Source: an uncultured Verrucomicrobiae bacterium
GTDB taxonomy: Bacteria; Verrucomicrobiota; Verrucomicrobiia; Chthoniobacterales; UBA10450
Direction of reading: 5' to 3'
NCBI GenBank assembly: GCA_963726745.1
Contig: CAVSDR010000003.1
Coordinates: 480,001-544,000, forward strand
Length of the DNA: 64,000 bases
Shown here: positions 3,826-38,686 of the stretch, one piece after another
Position numbering within the stretch: the first letter of the stretch is position 1
Layout of the letters: every line of letters starts with the position of its first letter
Program-made: the position numbers and the translations under genes
The notes under the pieces: model-generated
The model's database searches: none
What the model was told of the DNA's origin: nothing
The model's input: only the letters and a program-made list of their open reading frames with translations

Positions 3826-4139
3826 TCGTAGCTTCGGTTTTAGTGAAAAAGCCGGCGCGTTGTCGAGTGCGGCCTCGCAGGGGTTAAGCGCAGTCCGCCG
3901 GAGAGAACGGCCATCTCGCTGCCTAACGGGTGCAAGCAAAATGCCGCCTTGTCTTCCCCGGGAAATGCTCGAAACTAGCCCGCTCCCGGTTCGTTCCCCG
4001 CGCTCGGTCGAAAGACCGATGGGCGCACGGTCAACGCCAGGCGCCGCCAGTACGGCGCGCGCTCGCCGGGTGGCAGGCGCCAGCTGTTCTGGCGCAGTGG
4101 GTTTCGCGATGGGCGCCTCGGCGGCTCGTCGCCGCATTT

Positions 4140-4358
4140 ATGAATTCCGAAAAAGCAATCGAACTCGAAGGCCGCATCACTTCCGTCCTCGCGGGCACCA
4201 TGTTCCGCGTCCAACTCGCAAACGACCACATGGTCCTGGCGCATATCTCCGGGAAAATGCGCAAACGTTTCATCCGCCTGACCACGGGCGACCGCGTCAA
4301 GCTCCAGATGTCGCCCTACGATGTCAGCAAGGCGCGCATCGTCTATCGCCTCGGTTAA
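4140..4358 (+). CDS. infA: Translation initiation factor IF-1
   Basis: 72 aa; [27 protein letters not shown]...GDRV..MSPYD..KARI.YR. Confidence 0.97.
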
Positions 4359-4382
4359 CGCCCCTCTTTCCTTCCGCCTGCC

Positions 4383-4559
4383 ATGATCAAACGCGTCCTC
4401 GTTCGTTGCCCCTCCACCGCCAAGCTCACGCCCACCGGCCAGACCGTGGACGAGGAACATTGGGAAACCACCAAGCTCAAGGCCCCCAAGAAACTCGAGT
4501 GCCCTCACTGCCAGGGAACGCACGAGTGGACTAAGAAGGACGTCGTCCTCGCTCGTTAG
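4383..4559 (+). CDS. Small zinc-ribbon-like protein (58 aa; not in the ORF track)
   Basis: Translated by hand: MIKRVLVRCPSTAKLTPTGQTVDEEHWETTKLKAPKKLECPHCQGTHEWTKKDVVLAR*. C...CPHC..H pattern; genome-typical codon usage. Confidence 0.75.
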   Translation: MIKRVLVRCPSTAKLTPTGQTVDEEHWETTKLKAPKKLECPHCQGTHEWTKKDVVLAR

Positions 4560-4627
4560 GCAGCGCTTTCGCCGAGAGCGGGATTGACCGCCGCGCTGCC
4601 GCTTGCTTAGATCAAGCCGAACGCGCC

Positions 4628-5078
4628 ATGGCCAAGCAGCGCAAAACCGCGGCGGCTTCCCCCGCCGATGCCCCGAAGACGGAAAACGCCTTCGACGCTG
4701 GCCGTGAAGTGGCCGGCAATTTCTTCCGCGAAGCCGAGGATGCCTCGCCGAAATTAGTCGACGAGATCATGGCCCTGCGGCGCGATTATCTCCGCGCCTG
4801 GTCCGAGGGCGTCGGCTCCTGGCTCGATTTCGGCGAAGAGGTGCTCGAGAAGCTTAACGTCCGCCCGCAGAGTCTCCGCCGACATGAAAAACATGGCCCG
4901 CGACCTCACCGAAGGCTGGCTCAAAGCCGAGGCGGAAGTGCTGCAAAACGCCCTCGGCGTTTCCCGCTCGCTCGTCCAGGCCGCCGCCGCCGGCTCCCAG
5001 GCGCTCAACGCCGCCGGCTTTCGCGCCACCCTCTCCGCGGTCGACCTCGTCCGCGCCCGCGAAACCAAGAACGGCTGA
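4628..5078 (+). CDS. Helical hypothetical protein (phasin-like character), probably one gene split by a 1-base insertion at ~4855-4880
   Basis: Frame from 4628 is protein-like up to EKLN; the +1 frame continues SARRVSADMKNMARDLTEGW...ETKNG*. TTGACC-N18-TAGATC promoter-like sequence upstream. Confidence 0.5.
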
Positions 5079-5095
5079 CGACCCCGCGCTGATCC

Positions 5096-7159
5096 ATGCC
5101 TGGACTCAGCGAGGACGCCGCACCGCCAGTCGTCACCCTTGCCGGGAACCTGGCCGACGCGCTCGAGCGCAGCGGCTTTTGGCCACGCGTGCGCGGGCGC
5201 ATCCTCATTCTCCCGGATCTTGGCTTTTTCTCCGCGGCTGCGCCCACTTTCACGGATCCGCGCCTGGTCGAGGAGTTGATCGATCTCCTGCACGCGCGCG
5301 GGCACAGCGCGGTCACCGTCGGCGCCTCGCCTAACGAGTGGATTCACTGGACGGAAAATCGCGCCGTCCCCGTGCTCGCCGATCTCGCTGGCTATCGCTA
5401 CGTCACCGCGGGTGGCGTGCCCTACGACTTCGTCGATCTGAGCGAGGAAACCGTGGGCGATCTTTTCCCGGCGCACTCCTCCCTGCGCGACCGCGCCCTC
5501 AGCCGGCTTTGGCTGGAGGCGGATTGCCGGATCAACTTCGCCAAGAACAAGACCGACGAAGCCAACGCCTACGCGCTCGGCTTGCAAAACCTCCTCAGTC
5601 TTCTCCCGCCGCCGCGGCTCCCGGCGGAGGAATGCGCCGCCGATCTCCTCCGCTACGCTCCGCCGCACTTTACTTTGATCGATGGCCTCACGAGCAATCA
5701 CGGCGCCCACGGCAGCCGGGCCGCCGCGCCCCTGGAGACAAATACGATCGTCGCGAGTTCGTCGCTCCTCCTGGCCGACTGGGCCGCGGCGCTTAAGATG
5801 GGCCTCGACCCCTACAGCTCGCCATTAAACGCTCACGCGCTGCGGGAAATCGGCCTACCGGCGAGTTATCGAATCGACGGCTCCCTCGCCACCTACCCTG
5901 GCTGGCGCAATGTCCCGCCGCTCGTGCTTGATTCCGCGCGCCGCCGCAATCAATCCGCCGCCTTTTCCCGCCTGGCGCAGCCCTGGCTCCAGCAGGTCGA
6001 CCCGGAGCTTTTCCCTTTCCGGGAATTGCTGCACGAGCGCGCGCACGCCTGGGCGCAAAAATACCTCGGCGCCACCGGGGACAACGCCGCCCTGGTCGCC
6101 TCCGTGCTTGCGAATTACCTCATCGGCCAGGCGCATGCCGGCAGCGAAGCTCTCCGCATTGTCTTCGCCAAGCAGGCGCTCGCGCGCCGCCAGACCGGCC
6201 TCAGCTTCGATCCGCACGATTACTCGTTAGCCGACTACGAGGCGGCCGCGCCCTACATGGAGCAATGGGAGCGCCTTGTCGCCGAGACCGAGCCGCACGA
6301 GTCCGGCCTCCGCTGGCGCTACCTCGATGGCTCGGTCGTTTTCCGGATGGCGCGCGTGCTCCCTTTCCCCTTCGAGCAATGGCGTGCGCGGGTCGACATC
6401 GCCGGCGCGGTCTCGAGCATGAACGATTACCTCGGCGGCGCCTGCGTGCCGGTGCAGCGCGATGCCCTCGGCCTCGTGACCCACCAGGCGGAGCGGAACA
6501 TCTACCTCCCGCAACCGAACTGGATGGCCTTTTTCGGCGGCGCGGCCATCGATGTTTGCAAGCTCGAGCACGTCCGCTACGCGCCCGACTTCCAGCGGAT
6601 TTACTGGCGCACAATCCGTAGCCCTAACGAATCGGCGGAGTTTGACGACGGGATCGTCAGCTTTGCGCGCGCGGGCGAAGACCAAACCGAAATCTCCATC
6701 GTCGGGCGGCAAAAGTTTCGCCTGCCGCTCTTCTGGCAGGCGGTCAACATGGACCTCTGGCCTTCGATCAAGGATGTCCTCGTGACCCATGCCTACGAGA
6801 ATTATTTCCGCGGCACGCTGGCTAATTTTCAGGCGCAATACGAAGGCCGCGAGTTCCGCATCGGCCACACCCCACCTAACGAGGCACCCCCCACCGGCCT
6901 TGAAGCGCTGCTTGAGCTCTTCGGCCTCCAGCCGGCCGACGTGGAGAAATACGCCCACGTGATCCGCGGCGGGAAGGCCGCGCCCGCAGCCGATCCCGCG
7001 GCGACGATCGACGAGCACGGGTTCCGCCATTTTCCCGGCGCCGACCACGGTGCGCTGCCGCCCGATCCGTTCGCCAGCGCCTTTCACGAGAGCCGCAGTT
7101 TCCTCGGCGGATTGCTCCAGGCGATGCGGAAGGATCTCGGCCTCGCGGAGGAAAAATGA
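5096..7159 (+). CDS. DUF362-like N-terminal domain fused to a SRPBCC/START-like C-terminal domain
   Basis: DUF362-like motifs FTDPRLVEELI, INFAKNKT, LIDG...G..G, ASSSLLLAD.AA..KMG.DP; C-terminal helix-grip-like region. 687 aa. Confidence 0.6.
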   Translation: MPGLSEDAAPPVVTLAGNLADALERSGFWPRVRGRILILPDLGFFSAAAPTFTDPRLVEELIDLLHARGHSAVTVGASPNEWIHWTENRAVPVLADLAGYRYVTAGGVPYDFVDLSEETVGDLFPAHSSLRDRALSRLWLEADCRINFAKNKTDEANAYALGLQNLLSLLPPPRLPAEECAADLLRYAPPHFTLIDGLTSNHGAHGSRAAAPLETNTIVASSSLLLADWAAALKMGLDPYSSPLNAHALREIGLPASYRIDGSLATYPGWRNVPPLVLDSARRRNQSAAFSRLAQPWLQQVDPELFPFRELLHERAHAWAQKYLGATGDNAALVASVLANYLIGQAHAGSEALRIVFAKQALARRQTGLSFDPHDYSLADYEAAAPYMEQWERLVAETEPHESGLRWRYLDGSVVFRMARVLPFPFEQWRARVDIAGAVSSMNDYLGGACVPVQRDALGLVTHQAERNIYLPQPNWMAFFGGAAIDVCKLEHVRYAPDFQRIYWRTIRSPNESAEFDDGIVSFARAGEDQTEISIVGRQKFRLPLFWQAVNMDLWPSIKDVLVTHAYENYFRGTLANFQAQYEGREFRIGHTPPNEAPPTGLEALLELFGLQPADVEKYAHVIRGGKAAPAADPAATIDEHGFRHFPGADHGALPPDPFASAFHESRSFLGGLLQAMRKDLGLAEEK

Positions 7160-25022: not shown

Positions 25023-25095
25023 GGGGGTATAGCTCAGTTGGTAGAGCGTCTCGTTCGCAATGAGAAGGCCAGGGGTTCGAATCCCCTTACCTCCA
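25023..25095 (+). tRNA. tRNA-Ala(CGC)
   Basis: Acceptor GGGGGTA/TACCTCC with G3:U70, anticodon loop TTCGCAA, T-loop GTTCGAAT; CCA not encoded. Confidence 0.97.
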
Positions 25096-25234
25096 CTCCC
25101 CCGCCGGTCCCGCGAAGTGCTTGCCAGCCGCGCAACGACTCGTTATACCGCTCGCTGAAACCAGCCCGCCGCGCGCCGGTCTGCGGTGTTGCGAGGGGCT
25201 GCCAAAATCAAACCCACGCAACTCAGCATCCACC

Positions 25235-25766: not shown

Positions 25767-25805
25767 AAACCTGCGGCAGGAGCGATTCCCGCCGCAGGTT
25801 TTTTA
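25767..25805. terminator. Intrinsic terminator between convergent genes, probably bidirectional
   Basis: AAACCTGCGGC...GCCGCAGGTTTTTT. Confidence 0.8.
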
Positions 25806-27218
25806 TTTCGCGGCCGCTTTGATGATCCGCAGGTCCTCGAGGAAGAGCGCATACTCGCGCGCGCGCGATTCCTCGTCCGGCTGCCGCAGAAGCGACGACG
25901 GATGCACGGTGGCAATCGTCTGCGCGGAGAACTCCGATTCAAGAATCTCCCCACGCTGTTTCGTTACCCGGAAGTTGCTGCCTAAGATCGCCTGCGCCGC
26001 GGTCGCGCCCAGGCAGACCAGCACCGCCGGCTTCACCGCGCGCAGCTCCGCCTCCATCCACGGGCGGCAGGCGGCGATCTCGCGCGAGTTCGGCTTTTGA
26101 TGGATGCGCCGCTTGCCGCGCGGCTCCCACTTGAAGTGCTTCACCGTGTTGGTCACGTAGACCAGCGAGCGATCGATCCCGGCTTCCTCCAGCGCGCGAT
26201 CAAGCAATTGCCCCGCGGGCCCGATGAACGGCTTCCCGGCGAGGTCTTCCTGGTCGCCCGGCTGTTCGCCCAGCATCATGATCGTCGCTTTTTTTGGGCC
26301 TTCGCCGAAGACGGTTTGCGTGGCGCGTTTGTAGAGGTGGCAGGCGGTGCATGCCTTCGCCGCGTCGGCTAGTTTCTCCAGGCTGGCCGTCTCCGGCACG
26401 GGTGCCGGCTGCCATTCCTCCACCGCATCCGCGGTCTTGCGCTCGCTTTTTTTTACCATCGCCTCGACCCTTCGCGGCGCTTCCTGGAGAAGTGATGGAA
26501 TCAGCACCGCCTCCGGGAGATTGCCCCAATATTTCTTCGGCATCTCCGCCTGCATTGCGTGCACTTTCACGCGACCGGGATTGAAAATGTTCGCGTAGTA
26601 GGTCAGCCAGAGGCCCTCGATCTTGTCGTCTGTCGGCGCCTGCGAACGATCGACGCCCTCGGTAAAAGTCAGCTCGCGCCCATCCCAGTGCGCGCAGCGT
26701 TCCGGGGTCAGGATCGACCAGCGCATCGAGGCAAAGCGATCCACGAAAAAGCCGGCGTTGAATTCCACGATGTGATGCGCCGGCTCGAACCAGGCGACGA
26801 ACCACTTCTCGCCGCCTTCAAGTTCCATCTCCCGGAAGCGGACAAAGGCGCGCATCTTGTGCACGTCGCGCCGGATCGCTTTCTGGAACTCAAAGGCCAG
26901 CGCGGTGTCGGGATCGACCGAAATCTCGAGCAGCTTCGGCTCGCCGTGCGTCAGCCGCCAAACCAGGCGGTAAAGCAAAGCCCAGCGGCGCTCGTCGCGA
27001 TGGAGCGCGACCACGCGCGCCAGCTCCACGAAAGCCTTCGGCACGCGGAAGCGAGTCGTTTCGCTGACCGGCTCTGCTTCTTCGAAAATATCCAGCGCCG
27101 GCTGTTCGCCAGTGAGTTCCTGCCAGACAACCTCTTCCGGCGCGATCCCCGCCTGCAAGGCGCTGCGCGCGGCGCGCTGCCAATCCGCAAACGTCGGGCG
27201 AAAACTGACCTGCCGCAC
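25803..27218 (-). CDS. DUF4130/TIGR03915-like domain fused to UdgX-type uracil-DNA glycosylase
   Basis: N-terminal HKMRAFVRF..WFEP.H.I..RF..M.WSILTP; C-terminal C..C, GEQPGDQED, KRRIH (UdgX signature), HPS. Confidence 0.92.
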   Translation of the reverse strand: MRQVSFRPTFADWQRAARSALQAGIAPEEVVWQELTGEQPALDIFEEAEPVSETTRFRVPKAFVELARVVALHRDERRWALLYRLVWRLTHGEPKLLEISVDPDTALAFEFQKAIRRDVHKMRAFVRFREMELEGGEKWFVAWFEPAHHIVEFNAGFFVDRFASMRWSILTPERCAHWDGRELTFTEGVDRSQAPTDDKIEGLWLTYYANIFNPGRVKVHAMQAEMPKKYWGNLPEAVLIPSLLQEAPRRVEAMVKKSERKTADAVEEWQPAPVPETASLEKLADAAKACTACHLYKRATQTVFGEGPKKATIMMLGEQPGDQEDLAGKPFIGPAGQLLDRALEEAGIDRSLVYVTNTVKHFKWEPRGKRRIHQKPNSREIAACRPWMEAELRAVKPAVLVCLGATAAQAILGSNFRVTKQRGEILESEFSAQTIATVHPSSLLRQPDEESRAREYALFLEDLRIIKAAAK

Positions 27219-27222
27219 GGCG

Positions 27223-28485
27223 CTAGAGCTGGCCGTCGAGCACCGAGGCCTCGGGTTGCGCAAACAAATCCAGTTGCCGCTCCGGCGGCTTGAAGCGCGC
27301 CGGCAAATCCGTGCGATCGATGGCCAGATTGGCCGAGTTGTAATCCGCGGTAATCACGAAGGGCAGCACCTTCTTCACCGAAACGTGGAGCCGCGGGAGG
27401 TCATCGAGTCGCAGCTTGTGCCAGCGGCGCACGCGCACGATGCGCTCCACCGATTTGGTCCCGAGACCCGGGATGCGCAGGAGCATTTCTTTAGGCGCCT
27501 TGTTCAGGTCGACCGGAAATTGCGCGCGATGCCGCAAAGCCCAGGCAAGCTTCGGATCGATCGCGAGATCGAGGTTCGGCGCCGAAGGCGTCGTCAATTC
27601 TCCATGTTGAAATCCATAAAAGCGCACCAGCCAATCGGCCTGGTAAAGCCGATGCTCACGCACCAGCGGCGGCGCGATCAACGGCAGACGACTGGACGCA
27701 TCCGGAATCGGGCTGAATGCGGAGTAATAGACTCGCCGCAGCTTCTGCTTCGTGTAGAGCGAGGTCGCTTGCGCGAGGATGGCCGCATCCGGCGTGTCGG
27801 TCGCGCCCACGATCATCTGCGTGCTCTGCCCCGCAGGCGCGAAGACCGGCGCCTTGCGGCTCTCGCGCCGTTCGATCTTGGACTGCGTGATCCGGTCCTT
27901 GATCTCGAGCATGGCCGCTTCCGTGCGCGCGAAATTTTTCTGCGGCGCCAATTCCTCCAGCGCCACCTTGGTCGGCAGCTCGATGTTGATGCTGATGCGA
28001 TCGGCCCAGCGCCCCGCCTCCGCGATCAAAGCCGGCGACGCTTCCGGAATTGTCTTCAGGTGAATGTAGCCGCGAAACTGGTGCTCGGTGCGAAGAGTCC
28101 GCGCGACCGCAACCACCTGCTCCATGGTGTAATCGGCATTGCGGATAATCCCCGAGCTAAGGAAGAGCCCTTCGATGTAATTTCGCCGGTAAAAATCGAG
28201 CGTCAGCTTGACCACTTCCTCGGCGGTGAAACGCGCCCGCTGCACGTCGCTGCTGACGCGGTTGATGCAATAAAGACAGTCGTAGATGCAGAAATTAGTC
28301 AGCAGGATCTTGAGCAGGGAAACGCAGCGACCATCGGGCGTGTAGCTGTGGCAAATGCCCGAGCCGGTGGTCGAGCCGAGGCCGCCGGCAACGGTCGATT
28401 TGCGCTTGGTCGTGCCGCTGCTGGCGCACGACGCATCGTATTTTGCCGCGTCGGCGAGGATGGCGAGTTTGCTGGCTAAATCCAT
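27223..28485 (-). CDS. Putative DNA modification/repair radical SAM protein (TIGR03916-like) with HhH motif
   Basis: KL.IL.D.AKYD.SC, GICHS..DGRC.SLLK, CIYDCLYC, REHRLYQADWL.RFYGF. Confidence 0.93.
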   Translation of the reverse strand: MDLASKLAILADAAKYDASCASSGTTKRKSTVAGGLGSTTGSGICHSYTPDGRCVSLLKILLTNFCIYDCLYCINRVSSDVQRARFTAEEVVKLTLDFYRRNYIEGLFLSSGIIRNADYTMEQVVAVARTLRTEHQFRGYIHLKTIPEASPALIAEAGRWADRISINIELPTKVALEELAPQKNFARTEAAMLEIKDRITQSKIERRESRKAPVFAPAGQSTQMIVGATDTPDAAILAQATSLYTKQKLRRVYYSAFSPIPDASSRLPLIAPPLVREHRLYQADWLVRFYGFQHGELTTPSAPNLDLAIDPKLAWALRHRAQFPVDLNKAPKEMLLRIPGLGTKSVERIVRVRRWHKLRLDDLPRLHVSVKKVLPFVITADYNSANLAIDRTDLPARFKPPERQLDLFAQPEASVLDGQL

Positions 28486-28532
28486 GAGGGCCCCGAGACG
28501 CAATACGCTGCCAACGCGCCCGAAGACGCTCA

Positions 28533-28546
28533 CGTTCGTTTGAACT
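28533..28546. promoter_or_regulatory. Candidate LexA (SOS) box
   Basis: CGTTC-GTTT-GAACT matches 8/10 positions of the Verrucomicrobia LexA consensus TGTTC-N4-GAACA; ~50 bp upstream of the rSAM-UdgX operon. Confidence 0.5.
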
Positions 28547-29325
28547 TACGCCCGCGGCAAGGCCTGGCGCGCGAGAAACTCATCTGCCAGCGCGCCATAA
28601 GCCTTCGCGCCACTCCCGTTGGGCGCGTAGTCGAAGATCGATTGGGCAAAGCTCGGCGCCTCGCTCAGGCGGACCGTGCGTGGGATGACCGTCTGGTAAA
28701 CCTGCGCGCCGAAATGCTCCCGCACTTCCGCCACCACCTGCGCGCTCAGGTTCGTGCGACCGTCATACATCGTCATGAGAATGCCGCGTAATTCCACGTG
28801 ATCGTTCGCGCCGGAGTCGCGGATTTGCTGGATCACGCGCACGATTTTCACCAAGCCCTCGAGCGCGAAAAATTCGCACTGGATCGGCGTGAGCAACTCA
28901 TCCGCGGCCGCGAGCGCGTTTGTCATCAGGATGCCTAACGAGGGCGGGCAATCGAGCAGGATGTAATCGAAGGTATCGTCAGCGCGCAGTGGCTCAAGCG
29001 TGGTCCGGAGGCGCGTGAGATGATTCTCCATCCGCGCGATCTCGATCTCAGCGCCGGCCAGGTCGAGATCGGCCGGGATCAGAAAAAGGCCGTCCACGCG
29101 TGTCGGCAGGACTTTTTCCACGATCGAAGCCTCGCCCAGGAGCGGCCCGTAGAGACTCTCGCCTTCGAGTTCCTGGAGGCCGAAGGAACTGGTCGCGTTG
29201 CCTTGCGGGTCGAGATCGATCAAGAGCACGCGCTGGCCGCGAAGCGCGAGCGCGCAGCCGAGATTGACCGCGGTGGTGGTCTTCCCCACGCCGCCTTTTT
29301 GGTTCGCGATCGCGACGGTTTTCAT
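28546..29325 (-). CDS. parA: ParA/Soj family ATPase
   Basis: NQKGGVGKTTTAVN, DLDPQGNAT, DCPPSLG, PIQCEFFALEG, IPR.VRLSEAPS. Confidence 0.93.
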   Translation of the reverse strand: MKTVAIANQKGGVGKTTTAVNLGCALALRGQRVLLIDLDPQGNATSSFGLQELEGESLYGPLLGEASIVEKVLPTRVDGLFLIPADLDLAGAEIEIARMENHLTRLRTTLEPLRADDTFDYILLDCPPSLGILMTNALAAADELLTPIQCEFFALEGLVKIVRVIQQIRDSGANDHVELRGILMTMYDGRTNLSAQVVAEVREHFGAQVYQTVIPRTVRLSEAPSFAQSIFDYAPNGSGAKAYGALADEFLARQALPRA

Positions 29326-31478
29326 GAGCGCGGGACGAGCAGGCTCCGCAGCTCGAAGGTGCGGTGTCCATCGGCTTCCTGCCAGCAGAGATGCTCCGGA
29401 TCGGGCAGCATCTCGGTGAGCTCGAGCTCGCCCGCTTTCTTCATCCAGCGATTGAGAATCTCGAGCGAGAGATAGCTTTCGAGGTCGAGGTAGACCGGCT
29501 TGGTGTCCTTGTCGCGACCCTCGGCGCCGCTGCGGCGGAGCGCGCCCTCGGTCGGGCGGAGGTAGACGTAGCGCGGGAGATCGCGCGCGGCGCGGAGTTT
29601 TTCCACCGCGAGGACGAGCGCGGGTGCGACGCCCTGGTAATCAGCAGCCGGCAGATCTTGCTCGCTAATGATCCAGGCCCGGCGCTGCACGATCGCCCGT
29701 CCGCAACGCAGCCGCGGCAGGTGCGGGAGGCCGCCGAAGTGGAACGGGTGAAAGCCCAACGGGATAAGCCAGGCGCGCGCGAAAGAGCCGAGGTATTCCT
29801 TGTTTCCCGCGCGCCGAAATCCGACGTCGCCCGTCGTCTCGTCGAGGAACACTTCCGTCTCCGCGGGCGCGACCTGCCGCCAACTCTTATCGGCACGCTG
29901 GTCGGCGACAAAGTAAGTGAGCTCAGGCAGCGCATCGAACAGCCGCACGGTGGTGTGCGCGGTGAAGTCGGCGGCAAAAAAGCCGTAATGCACGCTCGGC
30001 TTCCCGCCGGTAGTGCGGGCGAGCGCGGCGCGGAGCGCGGGTTTGTCCGGGCAACTCCAGTAAAGCGCGTGATGCAGGAGCGCGACCGGCGGATGGAATT
30101 CGCCCACGATCCACTCGTATTCGCCGAGCGTCACGGCCTCAAAGGAGCGCGCGGAAAGCTGCAGGTCGGCGGCCGGGTAAGTGTATTCGTCGAAGGCGGG
30201 GAACTCGAAATTCTCGCGCACGAAGGCGCAGTCTTTCGCGGTCAGATTCCACTCGGCTTCGTGCGCGTGCGCCTCCGCCATCTTGCGGAAAGCGGCTTTC
30301 ACTTCGGCAAAAGCGATCGCGGCTGGCGCGACCAAGCCGACGCCGGTGAGCGGGAGATTTTTGGCCGCGCAATGCGCGAGGAACTCCGGCAACGGCATGG
30401 CGCCGTCTTTGGCGTCCGCGGAGCGCAGCATCCCGGCGAGCGCCTGGGCCACGCGGTGCGCGACGAAGTTGTAGACGTCGCGCCAAAGGCCAAACCACGG
30501 CTCGATGTCAGCCGTGAGCTGTTCGACCATTTCGTGCGTGATGCTGAAGTTCGCCTCGCGCCGGCATTCCTCGGCGATCGGATTGGCCGCGGCGTAAAGA
30601 AAGCGGCGACCGGTGCTGAGCTTGCCGCCTAAATCATCGAGCGCGCGGCGGGCTTCGCTCATGAGCGCGGCCCGCTGCTCGAGATCGGCCGTGCCAGCGA
30701 AGTTGCTGCCTAACGACTGGAGATGCTGCGCGCGCTCATGCCAGGGCGAGTCCGGCGCCATCTCGCTGGCTAAAATCGCGAAGGCTTCCGGCTCCATCGC
30801 CGGGACCGCGAGATCGCCCGCGGCCGCGGCGAGGGTGTGCGCGGCCCAGCGCTCGAGAAAACTGATTCGCTCCGCGATCCCCGGCTGCGGCTCAAAGCGC
30901 AGGGTGTCGGCAATCGTGCCCCAGGCGGACGGCCCGAACTCGCTGTAGGTATCGTTCTTCCCGCAGACGCGCTGGAGGTAGAGATAAAGGTGACGCTCGT
31001 GCTCACGCGCGCGGGCGTTACGCGGTGGCAGCGGTTCGCCGGCCACGGGCAGGCGGTCGCGGAATTCGCCCGCGGAAAAGAGCAGATAGCCGGGCAAAAC
31101 CGTGCGGCTGGATTCCAACAAGGAAGCACGCGCGGCTTCCATTTCGCGGCTGAGCGTGCTGGCTAATTCCCGCTCGAGTCCGGCCGTTGCTTCGCGTTGG
31201 CGGATGAACTCGGCGAGCGCCCCCGGCAGGTCGGCCGTGGATTTTTCCCCGCCGCGCAGGAGCGCCCGGCAGGCGCGCGATTCCTCCGCGCTGAGACCGC
31301 TCGCGCGCGCGCCGACAAATTCCTCGGCCCGCTGCCGCGCCGCCGCGAGTTCCTTCTGCCTAACGAGCAGTGCACGCGCAAGGCGCGAGCTTTCGCTGGT
31401 GGCGAGCCGCAGAAGATGCTCGAACGGGACGCCCGTCGCCCGAATCAAAAAAGGCGAGGCAAGGGTGACGGACGACAC
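29322..31478 (-). CDS. Lantibiotic-dehydratase N-domain-only protein (small LanB / PEARL-like peptide aminoacyl-tRNA ligase)
   Basis: YLQRVCGKNDTYSEFGP..WG, GEFH, PRL...IVQR..W, LPRYVY, KP.YLD.ES, EMLPDPE.L...G..T.ELR; no elimination domain. Confidence 0.85.
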   Translation of the reverse strand: MSSVTLASPFLIRATGVPFEHLLRLATSESSRLARALLVRQKELAAARQRAEEFVGARASGLSAEESRACRALLRGGEKSTADLPGALAEFIRQREATAGLERELASTLSREMEAARASLLESSRTVLPGYLLFSAGEFRDRLPVAGEPLPPRNARAREHERHLYLYLQRVCGKNDTYSEFGPSAWGTIADTLRFEPQPGIAERISFLERWAAHTLAAAAGDLAVPAMEPEAFAILASEMAPDSPWHERAQHLQSLGSNFAGTADLEQRAALMSEARRALDDLGGKLSTGRRFLYAAANPIAEECRREANFSITHEMVEQLTADIEPWFGLWRDVYNFVAHRVAQALAGMLRSADAKDGAMPLPEFLAHCAAKNLPLTGVGLVAPAAIAFAEVKAAFRKMAEAHAHEAEWNLTAKDCAFVRENFEFPAFDEYTYPAADLQLSARSFEAVTLGEYEWIVGEFHPPVALLHHALYWSCPDKPALRAALARTTGGKPSVHYGFFAADFTAHTTVRLFDALPELTYFVADQRADKSWRQVAPAETEVFLDETTGDVGFRRAGNKEYLGSFARAWLIPLGFHPFHFGGLPHLPRLRCGRAIVQRRAWIISEQDLPAADYQGVAPALVLAVEKLRAARDLPRYVYLRPTEGALRRSGAEGRDKDTKPVYLDLESYLSLEILNRWMKKAGELELTEMLPDPEHLCWQEADGHRTFELRSLLVPRS

Positions 31479-31535: not shown

Positions 31536-32688
31536 CTATTTCGGCGGGAGCAGGGGCAGACGGATGGTGAAAGTCGTCCCCTGGTTCGGGGCGCTGTCGA
31601 CCTTGATCGAGCCATTATGATCCTCGACCACTTTCTTGGTGATGTAGAGGCCGAGGCCGGTGCCGCTTTTGCCCTGCTTGGTGGTGAAGTAGGGCTCGAA
31701 GATTTTCGGGATTTGCGCCTCGGTCATTCCGAGGCCGGTGTCGCTCACGCGCACGTCGACGTAAAATTCCTTGCGCACGCAATGCACGGTTACGCGTCCC
31801 TGGGTGTCGCCCGCGGCCTGGATGGCGTTGATGATCACGTTCTGGATGGCGCGTTTAATCTGGAGCGATTCGCCCATCAGGGTGCCGGCGTCCTCGCAAA
31901 TCTCGGTCTCCAGCTCGACGCCATTCTGCGTGGCGATGGGAGCGGCGCCTTTCACGATCTCCTGCACGATCGCGGAGATGGCGATCGGCTGGTGCGGGGC
32001 GGCCTCGACGCTGCCGTAGCTCTGCCACATGGTGAGGAGTTCGCGGCAGAGGCGGACATTCTGCTCGATGATATTCAACTCCTTCGCGGAGGTGGCAGTC
32101 TTGCCGTTCTCGGCTTCGGAGGCCTCGAGCTTTTTCGCGAGCAACTGCACGTAACCCCAGACGATCGTGAGCGGGTTTCCGAGATCGTGCACGAATTCCG
32201 CGGAAGCCTGGCCGAGCGAGGCCAGCCGCTCCTTTTGCGCAAGCTCCTTGAGCAAGCGGTTGTTGAGCTCGCGGATCTCGGTCGCCGCCGTGTCGCCAGT
32301 GCGCTGGACTGCGGGTGCGCTCGACGTTGCGGCTGATGACATCCCGCATTTCATGCGCATCGAAAGGCTTACTGATGTAGTCGTTTGCGCCCAGGCGGAG
32401 CGCTTCCTGCGCGGTCTCGAGCGCGCCAAAGCCGGTGAGCATGATCACGGCGACGTGCGGATCGATCTCGCGAATGAGACGGAGACCATCGATGCCGTTG
32501 GTTCCGGGCATGCGGATATCGGTGATGACCGCATCGGGATGCTTCTCGCGAAGAAGACGCAATCCATTTTCCACCGAGTCGGCCAGATGTACCTGATAGT
32601 TTGGCTTCAGGAGCATGCGGAGACTTTCGCGCGGCCCCATCTCATCATCGATAACGAGGACTTGAGGAAGTTCAGGGCAGGCGGTCAT
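31536..32688 (-). CDS. Hybrid receiver-histidine kinase (REC + HisKA + HATPase); 1-base insertion at ~32310
   Basis: REC IDDE..DIRMP..KPF joins in the next frame to ..VQRTG..FVHDLGNPL..NAIQA..DTG.G..FTTK..GTGLGL. Confidence 0.88.
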
Positions 32689-32710: not shown

Positions 32711-32726
32711 AGCTAAGGCCGTGCCG
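32711..32726 (-). promoter_or_regulatory. sigma54 (-24/-12) promoter candidate for the REC-HK gene
   Basis: Minus strand CGGCACGGCCTTAGCT = GG-N10-GC with GGCACG core. Confidence 0.6.
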
Positions 32727-32764: not shown

Positions 32765-32919
32765 TAAAATCCGCCGCCGCATTGGCTGCCAAGAAACAGC
32801 CGCCATTGGAAGATGCAACTTGTGAATCCGAAACGATCTGCGCCATATACATAAAGTTTACGAATGCGTAAAGACTGGTTTTGGAGCGAAAACAGCAGCG
32901 CACGTGACAGTTACTGGAA

Positions 32920-34164
32920 ATGCATAAGCGAAATCGGGTGGTGGTGACGGGGATGGGCGTACTCGCTCCAAACGGCACCGGGTTAAAGGCCTTTTGGGAA
33001 TCGCTTCTGGAGGGACGAAGCGGGATCGGGCCGATCACGCTCTTCGATGCCACCGGCTACAAAAGCCGGATCGCGGGCGAGGTAAAAGACTTCGATCCGC
33101 TGGATTATATGGAGGCAGAACTAAAACCAAAGCGGATGGCACGGCATACGCAGTTGGCCTACGCCGCAACCATGATGGCGCTACGCGACGCAGGCCTGGA
33201 CCTGAACAATCTTGAACTCCCGAGCCCGACCCCGGTAATCATCGGGGTAAGCATGAATGCGATGGATGTGGTCGAGCGAGCTTTTCATGTTGTGCAAAAC
33301 GTGAGTCCGAATCGTGCGGCCCCCACAACCTCGGCTGCTTCCATCCCACAAGCGCCGGCGAACGTGATCGCTGATCGCTTGGGTGCCTGTGCGAATGCTT
33401 CCACCGTTTCCTCGGCCTGCCCTTCTGGACTCGACGCCTTGGCCGATGCCGCAGCGATGATCCGCAGCGGAGAGGTTGAATTGGCCGTAGCCGGCGGAAC
33501 GGACGCCCCAATCACTCCATTGGTGATGGCCAGCTTTATCGCCAGCGGCCTTAGTTCGCATAGAAACGACGAGCCCGAAAAAGCGAGTCGGCCCTTTGAT
33601 ATCGATCGCGACACTGGCGTCATTTCCGAAGGCGCAGGCATCATGATTCTCGAAAATCTAGAACGGGCGGAGGCTCGGGGCGCGCGGATTTACCTGGAGA
33701 TCGAGAGCTACGGGAAACAGCGCGACCGCGATCCGGAACGGCCCGCGTCTGGCCTGGAGGACTCGATGCACATCGCGCTGGGTAATGCCGGCTGGACCCC
33801 GGACGACGTGGATTACATATCCGCCTACGGGCCCGGTCACCCGATTCTTGACGCGGCTGAAATCCGGGTAGTGAAGAAATTCTTCGGGGCTCGCTCGTCC
33901 CTGATCCCGGTGAACTCGATTAAAGGCTCAACCGGGAATGCGCTCGCCGCGGGGGGGCCGTTTCAGGTGATCGCCTCCGCCCTCGCGATTCAGCACCAGC
34001 TGATCCCGCCGACGGCCAACTGCGATGTCCTGGATCCGTCCATCGACATGGATATCGTCCGATTTAAGCCGCGCAGGATTAAATTGAGCCGGCTTTTGAT
34101 CAACGTTCGCGGTCTGGGGGGAAGCGCCAGCACCATGGCCGTGAGCCAAGTAAATGGCCGATGA
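32920..34164 (+). CDS. FabF-like beta-ketoacyl synthase with an altered active site (Cys kept; both His lost)
   Basis: RVVVTGMG, SACPSG, SRPFD..R, EGAG..ILE; SAYGPG in place of NAHGTS; KGSTGN in place of KS.TGH; NVRGLGG in place of NSFGFGG. Confidence 0.9.
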   Translation: MHKRNRVVVTGMGVLAPNGTGLKAFWESLLEGRSGIGPITLFDATGYKSRIAGEVKDFDPLDYMEAELKPKRMARHTQLAYAATMMALRDAGLDLNNLELPSPTPVIIGVSMNAMDVVERAFHVVQNVSPNRAAPTTSAASIPQAPANVIADRLGACANASTVSSACPSGLDALADAAAMIRSGEVELAVAGGTDAPITPLVMASFIASGLSSHRNDEPEKASRPFDIDRDTGVISEGAGIMILENLERAEARGARIYLEIESYGKQRDRDPERPASGLEDSMHIALGNAGWTPDDVDYISAYGPGHPILDAAEIRVVKKFFGARSSLIPVNSIKGSTGNALAAGGPFQVIASALAIQHQLIPPTANCDVLDPSIDMDIVRFKPRRIKLSRLLINVRGLGGSASTMAVSQVNGR

Positions 34165-36683
34165 GTGGAGCGGCCATCTCCACCCTCATTGCGATTGCAG
34201 TCCAAGTCGCACTGGGATTAGCGGTCTACCAAGCGAATCGCCACCGTCGAGCAAACCAAAGCTTTCTACTGCTCTCGGGGGTGATTGGCATCTGGCTGGG
34301 AAGTCTCTACCAAACTATGACGGTGAGCCGCAGCGGCGAAGCGCTGTTCTACATCCGGCAAGCATCGGCCGCCGGGGCCTACATCTTGGTTGCTTTTCAC
34401 ATCCTTCGTTTGTCGATGCAGACAGGCGAGCACTCCTGGAAAGTCATTTTTTTCAAGGCCCGCTGGTGGCTGGGGATGGGCACGGCCGTTGCGGTTTTCT
34501 GCCAGACAAACTTTTTCCTGAAAGGAGTCAGCTGGACGCAGTCAGCAACATCTGGAGTTCCGACGCCAACGCCGGTCTACGGAACGGCTGCCTTCGTCTT
34601 CGTGGCCTATTTCATCATCGCGGGCGTTTCCTACGTGGTTGGATATGCCCGCGATCTGCGCCGCTCCAGCGGACGCCAGCAGGCTGAGATCGCCTTTATC
34701 CTCATCGGCGCGGTCGTGACGCTGGCCACTGTGCTGATCGCCTTTGTCCTGCGCTTCTTTGTTGATCAATCCCGGTTGATCTGGTTCGCGCCTTTTCGGA
34801 TCGTTCTCTTCAGCCTCATCATTGCCTACGGCATCGCGACCCAAAAGATCATGGAGGTGGGTCTCTTTATAAGGCGCGCGATTGGCTACAGCCTTCTCAC
34901 CCTTTACCTCCTCGCGCTTTACGGAGTCGTTTGGTGGCTGGTTCTCACCGTGGCGGGGCCCGTCTTTGCCGGTGATGCCTCCCGCATCGCCCATGTCCTG
35001 GCCGCCATCGCGATTGCTTTCGCCATGGCCCCTGCACGGGGAGTTTCTCAAGGCGTGGCCGACCGGCTATTCATAGGATCACGCCGCCTCGATTTTCGCG
35101 CCACGGTGAACAAGGCCATTGCCATCCTCCGGTCAGTCAGCACCATCAGCGAGTTGCTCGAAAAATTTGCCACCACCATCGCCGAGGCGGTGGATACCGA
35201 CCGCATCCTCATTCTGCAGCCGAGTCGCATCGGCTTTGCCCAGCAATACCCCCCATTGCCTGCGACCGGAAGAGTCGGCTTGATCGAGCTGAGTAAAGAC
35301 GATCCGCTGATTCGGCACCTCGAAATGAGTCCGGAACCGATCGTCCTGGACGAGATCAATCTCATCCGGCCGACTCCGCAAATGGAGCGTGTCGCCCGAC
35401 GAATGGGCTCGATTCAGATTGCGGTCGCCGTCGGCATTTTCTCCCGCGACCAACTTGCCGGCGTCCTGCTTCTAGGGCCTCGCCGCTCTGGCCAAATCTA
35501 TGGGAGCGCCGAGCAAAACGCACTGCAAGTGCTTTCGGGGCAGCTCGCGGTGGCGATCGAAAACGCGCACCTCTTTACCGAAGTGCAGAACGCGAAGATC
35601 TACAACGAAACCCTGCTGCAAAACATGACCACGGGGGTAATCGCGGCCGATGTGGACGGGCTGATTTCCGTCTTCAACCGGGAGGCGGAGCAGATCACCA
35701 ATCTGTCCTCGACAAATCTCGTGGGCGAAGCGGTCTACGTTTTACCGCTGGCCTTGCGCGAGGTCATCCAGGACACCCTGCGCTCCGGCGAGCGGCAGGA
35801 GAATCGGGAGCTCGAGCTGCAGGCAAAAGGCGAGGAAGTGATCGTGCGCGCGAGCAGCTCGGTCTTCCACGGCGAGGATGGGACCATGCTCGGCGCGATG
35901 ATGGTGTTGACCGATGTGACCGCGCTGAAGCGCCTGGAATTGCAGATTCGCCGGAGCGATCGCCTCGCCAGCCTGGGCACGCTTTCCGCCGGGATGGCGC
36001 ACGAAATCAAGAACCCGCTGGTCTCGATCAAAACCTTTGCGCAACTCTTGCCAGAGCGGTATCAGGACAGCGATTTCCGCGAGACTTTCTCGAATCTCAT
36101 CGGGCACGAGATCGACCGGATCGACTCCCTCGTGAACCAATTGCTCCGTTTCGCCAAGCCGACCAAGCCGCTCCTCAAGCCCGTGCACTTGCACGAAGTG
36201 CTGGAAAAGTCGCTCATGCTCGTCGGGCACCGCCTCTACCAGAAAGAAATCAAATTAACTCGTTCGTGGAATGCGGATGTGGATACTATCCGCGCTGATG
36301 GCGACCAGATGGAGCAGGTTTTCCTTAACTTTTTCCTGAACGCCATGGACGCGATGCAGCAGGGCGGCGAGCTCACCGTCTCCACCGAAATCCGCCCCGC
36401 AAATGACTGGGCGGCGCTCAAGGGCACCGGTCGCAGCGGCGAAATCCTGCGCGTGACCGTGCGCGACAACGGCGAGGGCATCAAGGCCGAGAACGTGGCC
36501 CACGTCTTCGATCCATTTTTTACCACCAAGGACTACGGCACCGGCCTCGGCCTTTCCGTGGTCCATGGGATTGTGCAGGAACATGGCGGCCAAATCGAAG
36601 TAGAGAGCGAGCTCGCCCAGGGAACCTCGTTCCACATCCTCCTCCCCTTGGTGCGCTTCGTTGAGGAGGTCGCCGCCGCATGA
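34161..36683 (+). CDS. Multi-TM (7TM-like) GAF-PAS sensor histidine kinase
   Basis: About 9 hydrophobic helices, GAF ending AVAIENA, PAS GVIAAD.DG.I..FN..AE, MAHEIKNPL, NAMDAM, FFTTK..GTGLGL. Confidence 0.92.
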   Translation: MSGAAISTLIAIAVQVALGLAVYQANRHRRANQSFLLLSGVIGIWLGSLYQTMTVSRSGEALFYIRQASAAGAYILVAFHILRLSMQTGEHSWKVIFFKARWWLGMGTAVAVFCQTNFFLKGVSWTQSATSGVPTPTPVYGTAAFVFVAYFIIAGVSYVVGYARDLRRSSGRQQAEIAFILIGAVVTLATVLIAFVLRFFVDQSRLIWFAPFRIVLFSLIIAYGIATQKIMEVGLFIRRAIGYSLLTLYLLALYGVVWWLVLTVAGPVFAGDASRIAHVLAAIAIAFAMAPARGVSQGVADRLFIGSRRLDFRATVNKAIAILRSVSTISELLEKFATTIAEAVDTDRILILQPSRIGFAQQYPPLPATGRVGLIELSKDDPLIRHLEMSPEPIVLDEINLIRPTPQMERVARRMGSIQIAVAVGIFSRDQLAGVLLLGPRRSGQIYGSAEQNALQVLSGQLAVAIENAHLFTEVQNAKIYNETLLQNMTTGVIAADVDGLISVFNREAEQITNLSSTNLVGEAVYVLPLALREVIQDTLRSGERQENRELELQAKGEEVIVRASSSVFHGEDGTMLGAMMVLTDVTALKRLELQIRRSDRLASLGTLSAGMAHEIKNPLVSIKTFAQLLPERYQDSDFRETFSNLIGHEIDRIDSLVNQLLRFAKPTKPLLKPVHLHEVLEKSLMLVGHRLYQKEIKLTRSWNADVDTIRADGDQMEQVFLNFFLNAMDAMQQGGELTVSTEIRPANDWAALKGTGRSGEILRVTVRDNGEGIKAENVAHVFDPFFTTKDYGTGLGLSVVHGIVQEHGGQIEVESELAQGTSFHILLPLVRFVEEVAAA

Positions 36684-38686
36684 CCCTGCCTCCGGTCTGC
36701 ATCTTGTACAGTCAGGATGCCGACCTTGTCCGGCGCGTAAAAGCCTTCCTGCGGCTCGTCGCCCAGGTGCGTCACGTCGGCCAACTCGACCGGCTCGATG
36801 CCGTCCTGCAACAGGCCAGCCCGGCGTTGCTCTTCCTTGACCTGCGCGCGGAAGGCGCGCGCGATCTCGTCGGCCAGGTGCAAAAGGAGTGGCCGGAAGT
36901 TTTACTCACCGCGCTGGGTGCGCCGCGCTCCGAGCCGCTGCGCGAGGCCGAACAATGCGGCATCTATGCGGTGGAGGATTTGCAACTCGATCGCCGGCGC
37001 TTCCAGGCACTCGTTAGCCGCGGCTTCGATCACCTCCGCTTGATGCAAGAAAACCGCGAGCTGCGCGACCAAAACAACGCCACCCCTACGCCGGAACCGC
37101 CGCGCCGGCTGGACCAGACGCCCGACCGCTACGCCCCTTCCATGCCGCTGCTGCGCTTCCCGCGCGTCTTCCGCCGCTTCGATAATGTCGAGACGCTGCT
37201 CGCGACCGTCGTGGAAGGTGTGGCCGATGCCGCCGGGGTCACGCGCGTGGGTATTTTCTCGCGCATCCGCCAGAGCGATCGCTACCGCCTGCGCGCCGGG
37301 CTGCGTTGTCTCCAGGAAACTTACGAGATCGAATATGGCGAGCGCGACGCCCTCGTGCGCTGGTTCGAGCTGCATGCGCATTTGATTTGCCGGAACAATC
37401 TCGCGCAGGCTTCCGATGCTCCGCAGCGCGCCCTCATGCGCCGCGCGCTCGATACTTTTGGCGCCGAGGTCATCGTCCCGCTCTACGCTCGCGGGAGCAT
37501 CATCGGCTGGCTCTTCTTTGGCCACAAAGTCACCGGGCAACGCTTCGAATATCCCGACCTCGAGAACCTGATGATGCTCGCGGAGCATGTCTCGACCGTG
37601 CTCGAGAATGCCCTCCTCTACGAGGAAGTGACGGTGCAGAAAACTCTCGCCGAGACGCTCCTGAAATCGATTCCGCCGGGCATTGTTGCGACCGACGAGG
37701 ACGCGATCATTCGCTGGTTCAACCCGACCGCCGAACAAATCCTCGGCCTGCGCGCGGAGGACGTGATCAACCATCCCGTCGAGGCCGCCGGCACCCGGCT
37801 CGCCTCATTCCTGCGCGAAACTCTCGAGGCGAAATCCCATCTTCCTTCGCAGCAATGGATCGACGCCAACACCCGGCGTTCTCTCTCGGTGGAGACGCGG
37901 CGCCTCGTCGGCGAACGCACCCCATTGGGCGCCGTTGCGGTAGTGCAGGACCTGACGAACGAAGAGAGCCTGCGGCAAAAGAAAGACCTGCTCGATCGCG
38001 CCGCTTTCTGGACCGATCTGGCCGCAAGCATGTCGCACGAAATTCGTAATCCGCTGGTCGCGATCAAAACCTTCGCGCAGCTCCTGCCGGAGCGCTTCGA
38101 GGACGAGGATTTCCGGCGCGACTTCAATCACATCGTCGTCGAGGAGGTCGATCGCCTCGATAAGATCATCAGCCAAATCAACGACTTTGCGCATCCGCCG
38201 GAGTTGATCATGCGCCCGATCGACCTGCGTGCTTCCGTGCGCCGCGCGCTCGAGGTCGCACGTGAGAAGTTTCACACCAATGGCACCCCGGTGGAAATCG
38301 ACCTGCCGCCCGATCTCCCTCGCGTCCTCGGCGATGAAGGCGCACTCACCGAAGCCTTCGCCCATCTCGTTGCCAATGCCGCCGAGGCCACTCACGGCCA
38401 GGCGAAACCGAAGATCACCCTCGCGGCCAAATCCATTCGCACCGGCGAGGCCACCAGCGGCGTCGTCGTGATCGTGCAGGATAACGGCGGCGGCATTTCG
38501 CCCGATCTGAAGGACAAAGTCTTCTCGCCTTTCTGCACCACCAAGGCCCGCGGCATGGGCCTGGGCCTCCCGATCGTCAAGCGCACCGTGTTCGATCACA
38601 ACGGCCGCGTGGACATCGACTCGAACCCGCAGGGCACCTCCGTCAGCGTCATGCTTCCGGTGACGGAGTTGCGGCTTTCTTCCTAG
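36680..38686 (+). CDS. Soluble kinase: degenerate receiver + GAF + PAS + HisKA/HATPase
   Basis: N-terminal REC-like fold without the acidic pair or KP; MSHEIRNPLVAIKTFAQLLPER; DNGGGI, FCTTK..GMGLGL. Confidence 0.88.
   Translation: MTLPPVCILYSQDADLVRRVKAFLRLVAQVRHVGQLDRLDAVLQQASPALLFLDLRAEGARDLVGQVQKEWPEVLLTALGAPRSEPLREAEQCGIYAVEDLQLDRRRFQALVSRGFDHLRLMQENRELRDQNNATPTPEPPRRLDQTPDRYAPSMPLLRFPRVFRRFDNVETLLATVVEGVADAAGVTRVGIFSRIRQSDRYRLRAGLRCLQETYEIEYGERDALVRWFELHAHLICRNNLAQASDAPQRALMRRALDTFGAEVIVPLYARGSIIGWLFFGHKVTGQRFEYPDLENLMMLAEHVSTVLENALLYEEVTVQKTLAETLLKSIPPGIVATDEDAIIRWFNPTAEQILGLRAEDVINHPVEAAGTRLASFLRETLEAKSHLPSQQWIDANTRRSLSVETRRLVGERTPLGAVAVVQDLTNEESLRQKKDLLDRAAFWTDLAASMSHEIRNPLVAIKTFAQLLPERFEDEDFRRDFNHIVVEEVDRLDKIISQINDFAHPPELIMRPIDLRASVRRALEVAREKFHTNGTPVEIDLPPDLPRVLGDEGALTEAFAHLVANAAEATHGQAKPKITLAAKSIRTGEATSGVVVIVQDNGGGISPDLKDKVFSPFCTTKARGMGLGLPIVKRTVFDHNGRVDIDSNPQGTSVSVMLPVTELRLSS

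Follow-up and report, generated by a model that had tools for sequence, protein, structure and literature searches.

What would an enzyme known from natural-product chemistry be doing between sensor kinase genes and parA? The question is raised by a 64-kb window (the whole stretch of 64,000 nucleotides (nt) that was analysed, positions 480,001 to 544,000 of contig CAVSDR010000003.1) from an uncultured bacterium of the verrucomicrobial order Chthoniobacterales. Directly upstream of parA, the chromosome-partition gene, the window encodes a 718-amino-acid (aa) protein that resembles the glutamylation domain of lantibiotic dehydratases (LanBs) and the peptide aminoacyl-tRNA ligases (PEARLs), and that we refer to here as the ligase. 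To our knowledge, the characterised PEARLs all belong to secondary-metabolite clusters. We found the ligase to be a single-copy core gene of one widespread soil family of Chthoniobacterales, vertically inherited throughout that family's history and under purifying selection, and to share its operon with regulatory genes. What is new here, and supported by the data below, is that a PEARL-like ligase of a known enzyme kind has become fixed across a family of bacteria in an operon of regulatory, not biosynthetic, character. We lean slightly towards an active PEARL-type ligase that acts, within this gene block, on a cellular substrate and not on a ribosomally made, post-translationally modified peptide (RiPP). 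Our literature searches returned no paper linking a lantibiotic dehydratase and ParA in Verrucomicrobia, and none on a small-LanB or glutamylation-domain clade in a housekeeping role.

Family assignment and predicted active site

The initial annotation, made from the sequence alone, described a small-LanB or PEARL-type protein without an elimination domain, and this description was borne out. The sole Pfam match was to Lant_dehydr_N (PF04738; 39.5 bits against a cut-off of 28), limited to about 60 residues (583 to 642); the orthologues scored 50 to 61 bits and covered more of the model. The protein had no Pfam match to the Lant_dehydr_C elimination domain (PF14028), none of the NCBIfam models matched it, a search of the PDB with the single sequence came back empty, and the ESM Atlas yielded nothing but generic clusters of Lant_dehydr_N. 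A profile built from 27 orthologues matched the split LanB TbtB in the PDB (E 3.4e-06), and a wider profile of 42 sequences matched both TbtB (6ec7; E 1.4e-33) and the goadsporin glutamylation protein (E 2.4e-19). As a reference for a full-length LanB we used P0277 from a sister genome (1090 aa; PF04738 at 515 bits, PF14028 at 231 bits). Aligned with hhalign, the ligase family and P0277 matched over 644 columns (probability 99.45%, E 4.8e-22), and the alignment stopped at LanB residue 775 of 1090, where the ligase ends and the LanB elimination domain starts. A search for longer, fused forms of the ligase among its relatives found none, which is weak evidence. Collectively, these matches support the assignment of the ligase as a putative, divergent LanB-N/PEARL-type protein without an elimination domain.

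We extended the search for the elimination domain to the whole genome of the window, which comprises 3.41 Mb in 7 contigs and is 94.7% complete, and obtained no match to PF14028. Run on the sister genome as a positive control, the same search gave two matches, which shows that the method works. That sister genome (G328), which also carries the ligase, encodes at a separate locus a class I lanthipeptide cluster (L042, G328:C3:84000-96000, at 1375-6779) consisting of a flavoprotein (LanD)-LanC fusion and the adjoining P0277; its second PF14028 match lies on another contig.

All of the aminoacylation motifs quoted in the initial annotation are present in the open reading frame (ORF): YLQRVCGKNDTYSEFGP at residues 167-183, GEFH at 459-462, KPVYLD at 660-665, EMLP at 689-692 and ELR at 709-711. 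To interpret these motifs we turned to residues assigned in published PEARLs. The excerpted text of PMC11117183 describes TglB Asp542 and Arg803 as residues of PEARLs only, which are Tyr and Leu in split LanBs, and describes TbtB Arg743, Phe783 and Glu851 as shared with PEARLs and TglB Glu801 as a shared ATP-site residue. For BhaB, an excerpt of PMC11962472 lists Arg34, Tyr205, Arg208, Arg429, Asp558, Glu575, Arg715, Phe755, Glu813 and Arg815 in the site for ATP, the tRNA 3'-CCA end and the peptide, with Tyr205, Arg208 and Arg429 contacting the CCA.

Candidate equivalents of these catalytic residues were present in an alignment of 79 full-length sequences, composed of 5 orthologues and 74 representatives from an exhaustive profile search that reached down to about 20% identity. 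R170, D438, R599, E709 and R711 were identical in all 79 sequences, E460 in 78, H462 in 76, R13 in 75 (the other 4 being gaps) and Y167 in 74; position 639 held Tyr or Phe in 77. R307, the candidate for the third CCA contact (BhaB Arg429), was kept in only 62 of the 79. Spacing gave a second line of correspondence. The Arg and the aromatic residue are 40 residues apart in the ligase, BhaB and TbtB alike, the Asp and the Glu are 22 apart as in TglB, and both the Glu-x-Arg at the C-terminus and the Tyr-x-x-Arg spacing agree with the published PEARL numbering. The alignment of hidden Markov models set R599 and Y639 opposite the corresponding Arg and Phe of TbtB.

The comparison with LanBs separates shared from PEARL-like features. 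The ligase has in common with split LanBs (TbtB, 6ec7/6ec8; the goadsporin protein, 9jhq) and full LanBs (the NisB type and P0277) the fold family, the putative adenine-binding Arg and aromatic residue, and the C-terminal Glu, but LanBs require an elimination domain or partner, and neither accompanies the ligase. In the hhalign alignment P0277 keeps the Glu, but has Ile at the position of R711 and Met, Gly and Asn at those of D438, E460 and H462. Because the ligase retains these four residues and the LanB lacks them, the ligase follows the PEARL pattern. The putative ATP-site residues and two of the three candidate tRNA-CCA contacts (Y167 and R170) are invariant or nearly so in the ligase family, and several of the putative site residues are absent from a true LanB.

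Likeness to TglB and to the BhaB-C(Trp)/(Ala) enzymes extends to domain content, since these PEARLs, as excerpts of PMC11962472 and PMC11117183 describe them, also possess just the LanB glutamylation-like domain and lack an elimination domain. The ligase keeps the Asp/Glu/His and Glu-x-Arg set, which would serve ATP-grasp-like phosphorylation, the Tyr-x-x-Arg predicted to meet the tRNA CCA, and the N-terminal Arg. It differs from them in sequence, being very divergent, as the empty single-sequence search and the short Pfam match illustrate, and in setting: pearlin clusters contain a scaffold peptide, a protease and tailoring genes, whereas the ligase has none of these and is a core family gene in a receiver-kinase/parA operon.

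Gene block, inheritance and predicted promoter

The initial annotation called the ligase an orphan, stand-alone enzyme. This part could not be upheld, as the gene proved to be a fixed member of a block of six in which the genes for two sensor histidine kinases (HK668 and HK840) and a ketosynthase-like (KS-like) protein diverge from those for a receiver-histidine kinase, the ligase and ParA (coordinates in Table 1). We examined synteny at 100 loci, 20 from genomes and 80 from metagenomes; all loci returned by the metagenome scan carried the family's own block. The receiver-kinase gene lay upstream of the ligase on the same strand in 67 of the 70 loci that could be judged (exceptions: L014, L100 and L102), and the KS-like gene was divergent in 53 of 54. 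On that opposite strand the KS-like gene is followed by HK840 and then HK668, with overlapping stops and starts. One side observation concerns a long-contig metagenome-assembled genome (L022, 8001-10203 and neighbours), in which each of three block genes (ligase, HK840 and KS-like) is split over several frames; these breaks look like assembly indel errors and not like pseudogenes.

Translational coupling of the ligase to parA had also been proposed. In the window the junction reads ...CGC TCA TGA AAA..., and parA directly follows the ligase in all 88 junctions that could be judged (12 of the 100 loci lacked the 3' end or sufficient downstream DNA). Gene order is therefore fixed, but the overlap of stop and start is confined to 54 of the 88 junctions: 53 have the 4-nt ATGA overlap and 1 another overlap, 11 have a gap of 0-30 nt, and 23 have a spacer of 85-217 nt.

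That the ligase lies outside a natural-product cluster, with no flanking precursor, protease or tailoring gene, was confirmed by annotation of its neighbours. There is no room for a small ORF beside the ligase or parA, because the intergenic gaps measure only 57 nt and 12 nt. The 13 wider receiver-kinase/ligase gaps of relatives held no conserved small precursor ORF; one of these gaps held a transposase-like ORF. The window contains neither a LanC cyclase nor a precursor gene, no genome-wide search for LanC having been made, and no elimination gene or precursor cluster from which the ligase could have been displaced was found elsewhere in the genome.

The distribution of the ligase, determined with P0001 as the query and with tallies that include a few genomes flagged as unpublished, is narrow and dense. 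In a sample of the phylum, 3 of 301 genomes carried it, all from one GTDB family of Chthoniobacterales. Within that family it was found in 129 of 151 genomes and in 31 of 36 genera, and none of 179 genomes across 15 other families of the order had it. The family's ligases formed one clade with 100% support in a FastTree phylogeny, nested among representatives from metagenomes, and the LanB sat on a long branch. Among the homologues outside the family, one was named Kofleriaceae. Over a 488-codon block and 254 pairs, dN/dS had a median of 0.124 (range 0.062-0.315). The genome of the window holds a single copy, which departs from 3 of 163 otherwise invariant columns (orthologues, 0-6) and has a GC content at third codon positions (GC3) of 0.81, similar to that of neighbouring genes. 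Both the vertical inheritance and the matching GC3 support the long residence that the initial annotation had suggested.

Within the family, all 13 genomes of one genus are without the ligase, and in the five of these read closely a profile search likewise found no ligase; the receiver-kinase, HK840 and KS-like proteins had only paralogue-level matches there, at 29-37% identity. ParA was kept at 74-75% identity in a different neighbourhood. This joint absence, with ParA retained, indicates that the ligase has been inherited together with the kinases and the KS-like gene, and that ParA can persist without any of them.

Between positions 25500 and 33200, no sigma-70-like promoter and no minus-strand terminator was predicted. 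We did identify a sigma-54-like -24/-12 element upstream of the receiver-kinase gene, GGCACGGCCTTAGCT, which is the only match to the pattern GG-N10-GC in the window (0.37 expected by chance). Among 60 distinct relatives, 45 had the strict pattern at the same position, 15-24 nt ahead of the ATG, and most of the others differed from it by a single base. Further upstream, the strict core of an imperfect palindrome (TTCACAAGTTGCATCTT) was found in 20 of the 60 relatives and may be an activator site. The genome contains rpoN, and we infer that the receiver-kinase, ligase and parA genes form a sigma-54-dependent operon. The position of this element ahead of the operon suggests that expression of the family's parA would depend, at least partly, on an enhancer-binding activator.

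Candidate substrates and competing explanations

With the ligase fixed between sensor kinase genes and parA, it probably modifies a cellular target and is probably not a maker of a natural product. If the ligase is active, its target would belong to normal cell physiology. By analogy with PEARLs, ATP would convert a carboxylate to an acyl phosphate, which would be attacked by the amino group of an aminoacyl-tRNA before release of the tRNA. The ligase would be co-transcribed from the sigma-54-type promoter with the receiver kinase upstream and parA downstream, and the carboxylate would be the C-terminus of a cellular protein instead of a RiPP scaffold peptide. Catalytic activity, the use of tRNA and ATP, the identity of the substrate and any effect on stability are all predictions from sequence, and that the substrate is a protein C-terminus at all is a possibility we rate a little short of even.

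Candidate substrates can be drawn from the block itself, and they are few: the tail of HK840, ParA, the receiver kinase and a product of the KS-like protein. We compared the C-termini encoded in the block. Those of ParA, the KS-like protein and HK668 were variable, and that of the receiver kinase was RLPL followed by 2-6 residues. The C-terminus of HK840 reads LPLVRF-x-x-(E/K)-V-A-A-A: Ala is the last residue in all 36 distinct orthologues, and Ala-Ala closes 34 of them. The tail codons vary freely (synonymously) at their third positions, and variation is also seen in the three linker residues that precede the tail. The genome's tmRNA tag is ADHQDLALAA, and clpX is present; excerpted text of PMC7652416 gives the terminal Ala-Ala carboxylate as the main ClpXP determinant of ssrA-like degrons. 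The presence of a conserved Ala-Ala tail and of the ligase in the same inherited block makes the ligase a plausible editor of that tail, where an added residue would alter recognition of the degron-like ...VAAA-COOH end. HK840 is thus our first candidate, although as the specific substrate it is rather unlikely to be correct.

In its full form the proposal is that a PEARL was recruited from natural-product chemistry, and that a charged tRNA would extend a cellular protein (HK840 being the best candidate, as an ssrA-degron mimic) and so tune its stability in a sigma-54-controlled circuit that also sets parA expression; it is a long shot. RimK and tubulin tyrosine ligase are ATP-grasp ligases of protein C-termini that use free amino acids, and alanine tailing takes place on the ribosome. 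Their likeness is to the proposed role of the ligase and is one of function only: a protein C-terminus gains residues post-translationally, and this has a regulatory or degron effect. The families are different. tRNA-dependent alanine tailing has been described in ribosome rescue (PMC7652416, in excerpt), and PEARLs have been argued to descend from ATP-grasp enzymes (PMC11117183, in excerpt). If the proposal were true, bacteria would have in the ligase a tRNA-dependent equivalent of tubulin tyrosination or of alanine tailing. More broadly, the locus raises the question of whether tRNA-dependent, ribosome-independent C-terminal extension serves as a regulatory protein modification in bacteria.

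An insert in the ligase bears on whether its substrate is a peptide or protein. Behind the FLERW motif, the majority of orthologues have an additional 85-107 residues; of those that could be judged, 75 of 103 proteins and 64 of 79 loci do so. In a wide profile of 42 sequences this stretch aligned to TbtB and, weakly, to PqqD entries (E 0.034 and 0.083), reminiscent of a RiPP recognition element (RRE). Neither the isolated insert nor five long orthologues gave a Pfam match to PqqD, and a profile of 40 inserts returned no PqqD from the PDB, only a spurious ubiquitin-like match. As neither Pfam nor the insert-only profile confirms it, "RRE-like" is a weak label.

Several observations weigh against an active ligase with a cellular protein substrate. 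The ligase of the window lacks the roughly 85-aa insert, which most orthologues have after about residue 221, and the insert has been lost at no fewer than five separate places in the tree (at least 5); such loss weakens the case for a peptide or protein recognised through an RRE. It also fits the dispensability of the RRE in TglB and BhaB, as given in an excerpt of PMC11962472, the RRE-like module having been lost repeatedly in the ligase family. The correspondence with TglB and BhaB residues is a predicted one, derived from published numbers, spacing and the TbtB and LanB alignments. The HK840 tail overlies a Shine-Dalgarno-like stretch and the ATGA start of HK668, such that constraint at the RNA level could partly explain its conservation, and about 3.5% of long ORFs in the genome end in Ala-Ala anyway. 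At metagenome locus L102 (262-4352), HK668 is directly divergent from ligase-parA, and the receiver-kinase, KS-like and HK840 genes are absent; this is a rare, rearranged form of the block. Finally, the receiver-kinase gene of the window is frame-shifted by one extra base at about 32310 (32300-32320, after ...ERTR), leaving its receiver and kinase halves in different frames. The frameshift could be a real mutation, with the module partly decaying here, or an assembly error. None of the sequencing runs listed as containing the sequence was an RNA run; three soil DNA runs from one study contained only about one tenth of the sampled words, and their contigs did not include position 32310.

The alternative that survives best takes the substrate to be a small-molecule carboxylate, such as an acyl or beta-keto acid handled by the KS-like protein, and the product to be a lipo-amino-acid-type signal sensed by the seven-transmembrane (7TM), GAF and PAS modules of the block's kinases. 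We consider it unlikely, if deserving of attention. Precedents exist for such chemistry: a PEARL occurs in the sna cluster of nonribosomal peptide synthetase and polyketide synthase genes (PMC11212132, in excerpt), and SinB1 and SinB2 of sinefungin biosynthesis act on a nucleoside (bioRxiv 10.64898/2026.05.21.726688, in excerpt). As these excerpts present them, both work without a ribosomal scaffold or RRE contact, and sna has a polyketide synthase-type partner nearby. The fidelity of the KS-like gene to the block argues in the same direction, as do its lack of an orthologue in all five genomes of the ligase-less genus, the dispensability of the RRE-like insert and the failure to find a precursor peptide. 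In seven aligned block copies the KS-like site keeps the Cys, with Tyr in place of the first His in all but one and Asn in place of the second His in all seven; the three FabF-type paralogues in the genome of the window have Cys/His/His. A Cys/Tyr/Asn site suggests acyl transfer over decarboxylative condensation. On the other hand, the block contains no gene for an acyl carrier protein, adenylation, a thioesterase or export, and most orthologues retain the RRE-like insert. The sna and SinB enzymes reside in actinomycete secondary-metabolite clusters, as excerpted, whereas the ligase has a single biosynthesis-like neighbour, a non-canonical KS-like gene set among those for sensor kinases.

ParA was offered in the initial annotation as a possible substrate, and as a substrate or stoichiometric partner it would be linked to the ligase by coupled translation, C-terminal tagging or regulation of the ATPase cycle. 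The invariant gene order and the frequent stop/start overlap favour this, and so does the status of this ParA as the genome's sole Soj-type member, unlinked to parB, which lies on another contig (G000 C6:895820-896098). The protein matches AAA_31 (E 2.2e-55) and Thermus thermophilus Soj (1wcv; E 2.2e-67) and carries a KGGVGKT motif. But the C-terminal tails of ParA orthologues vary in length and sequence and look alike in genomes without the ligase, and a ParA tail as a conserved recognition motif was rejected on these grounds. The long spacers at 23 junctions and the survival of ParA in the ligase-less genus also argue against the idea. parA is solo in changing neighbourhoods in the five other genomes of the order whose parA surroundings we read, and three read from other families show it solo in varied contexts, so the adjacency may go back to an insertion of the block upstream of parA that has since been frozen. 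Since ParA persists without the ligase and its tail is unconserved, nothing beyond gene order points to ParA as the substrate, and we regard such a role as improbable.

Loss of catalysis, with the ligase surviving as a scaffold or adaptor for the kinases or ParA, would accommodate the missing RRE-like module and the frame-shifted receiver kinase in the window as well as the lack of a visible substrate gene. It is hard to reconcile with putative ATP- and CCA-site residues that are invariant or nearly so in 79 sequences of down to about 20% identity, with a dN/dS of about 0.12, and with a window copy no more deviant than its orthologues, and is in our view very improbable.

The idea that the ligase is a displaced RiPP piece, namely a split-LanB glutamylation subunit that transfers Glu from Glu-tRNA to Ser/Thr with its partner and precursor elsewhere, can point to the Pfam class Lant_dehydr_N, to split LanBs (TbtB and the goadsporin protein) as the closest solved relatives and to a C39-peptidase ABC exporter 26 kb away, but is largely refuted by the absence of PF14028 from the genome under a working positive control, by Asp and Arg at both PEARL-only positions where LanBs have other residues, by vertical, single-copy inheritance across 31 genera in a constant arrangement with housekeeping and signalling genes, and by the separate locus of the sister genome's real lanthipeptide cluster. 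For genome mining, the finding also carries a warning that matches to "lantibiotic dehydratase" in Chthoniobacterales are not RiPP clusters.

Features of the window and neighbouring genes

Table 1. Features of the ligase locus, with positions numbered from the first base of the window
Feature	Position	Strand	Remarks
Ligase gene (PEARL-like / LanB-N-like, P0001)	29322..31478	minus	GTG start; from ORF reading and Pfam/profile matches
parA (Soj-type, 259 aa)	28546..29325	minus	ATG overlaps ligase stop (ATGA)
Receiver-histidine kinase (REC-HisKA-HATPase)	31536..32688	minus	upstream of ligase; 383-aa single ORF in 11 of 11 relatives read
Sigma-54-like -24/-12 element GGCACGGCCTTAGCT	32711..32725	minus	22 nt before receiver-kinase ATG
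Imperfect palindrome TTCACAAGTTGCATCTT	32810..32826	minus	conserved; about 85 nt upstream of -24/-12 element
FabF-like KS	32920..34164	plus	divergent across 220-bp region; non-canonical active site
HK840 sensor kinase (7TM-GAF-PAS-HisKA-HATPase)	34161..36683	plus	Pfam/NCBIfam domains
HK840 last four codons (V-A-A-A-COOH)	36669..36680	plus	conserved Ala-Ala tail
HK668 sensor kinase (GAF-PAS-HisKA-HATPase)	36680..38686	plus	start overlaps HK840 stop
Radical-SAM TIGR03916 (27223-28533) and TIGR03915/UdgX fusion (25803-27263)	25803..28533	minus	12-nt gap after parA; putative DNA modification/repair pair
tRNA-Ala(CGC)	25023-25096	plus	only good CGC isoacceptor in genome

The KS-like gene stands out in composition from the genes around it, with a GC3 of 0.69 and a local GC content of 0.59 (32-36 kb), both below those of its neighbours. 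Downstream of parA, the radical-SAM/UdgX pair falls outside the conserved block; in relatives it is often replaced by a short uracil-DNA glycosylase (UDG) gene or separated by insertions.

At 10 of 13 ligase-bearing loci scanned, as well as in the window, a gene for tRNA-Ala(CGC) is located downstream of parA at a distance of 0.7-6.6 kb and in either orientation; it is present at neither of two parA loci of the ligase-less genus. As a dedicated partner of the ligase this tRNA was rejected, because all five genomes of the ligase-less genus keep a copy of 99-100% identity elsewhere; with no joint absence of the two genes, their linkage is probably plain synteny.

The remainder of the window consists of ordinary housekeeping genes. 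At its edge, a gene cut by the window start (98-3268, minus strand) encodes a large protein that combines an ABC transmembrane region with a C39 peptidase domain and two domains for cyclic-nucleotide binding, as in a bacteriocin-type exporter with cyclic-nucleotide sensors. This is the exporter mentioned above, and housekeeping genes lie between it and the ligase.

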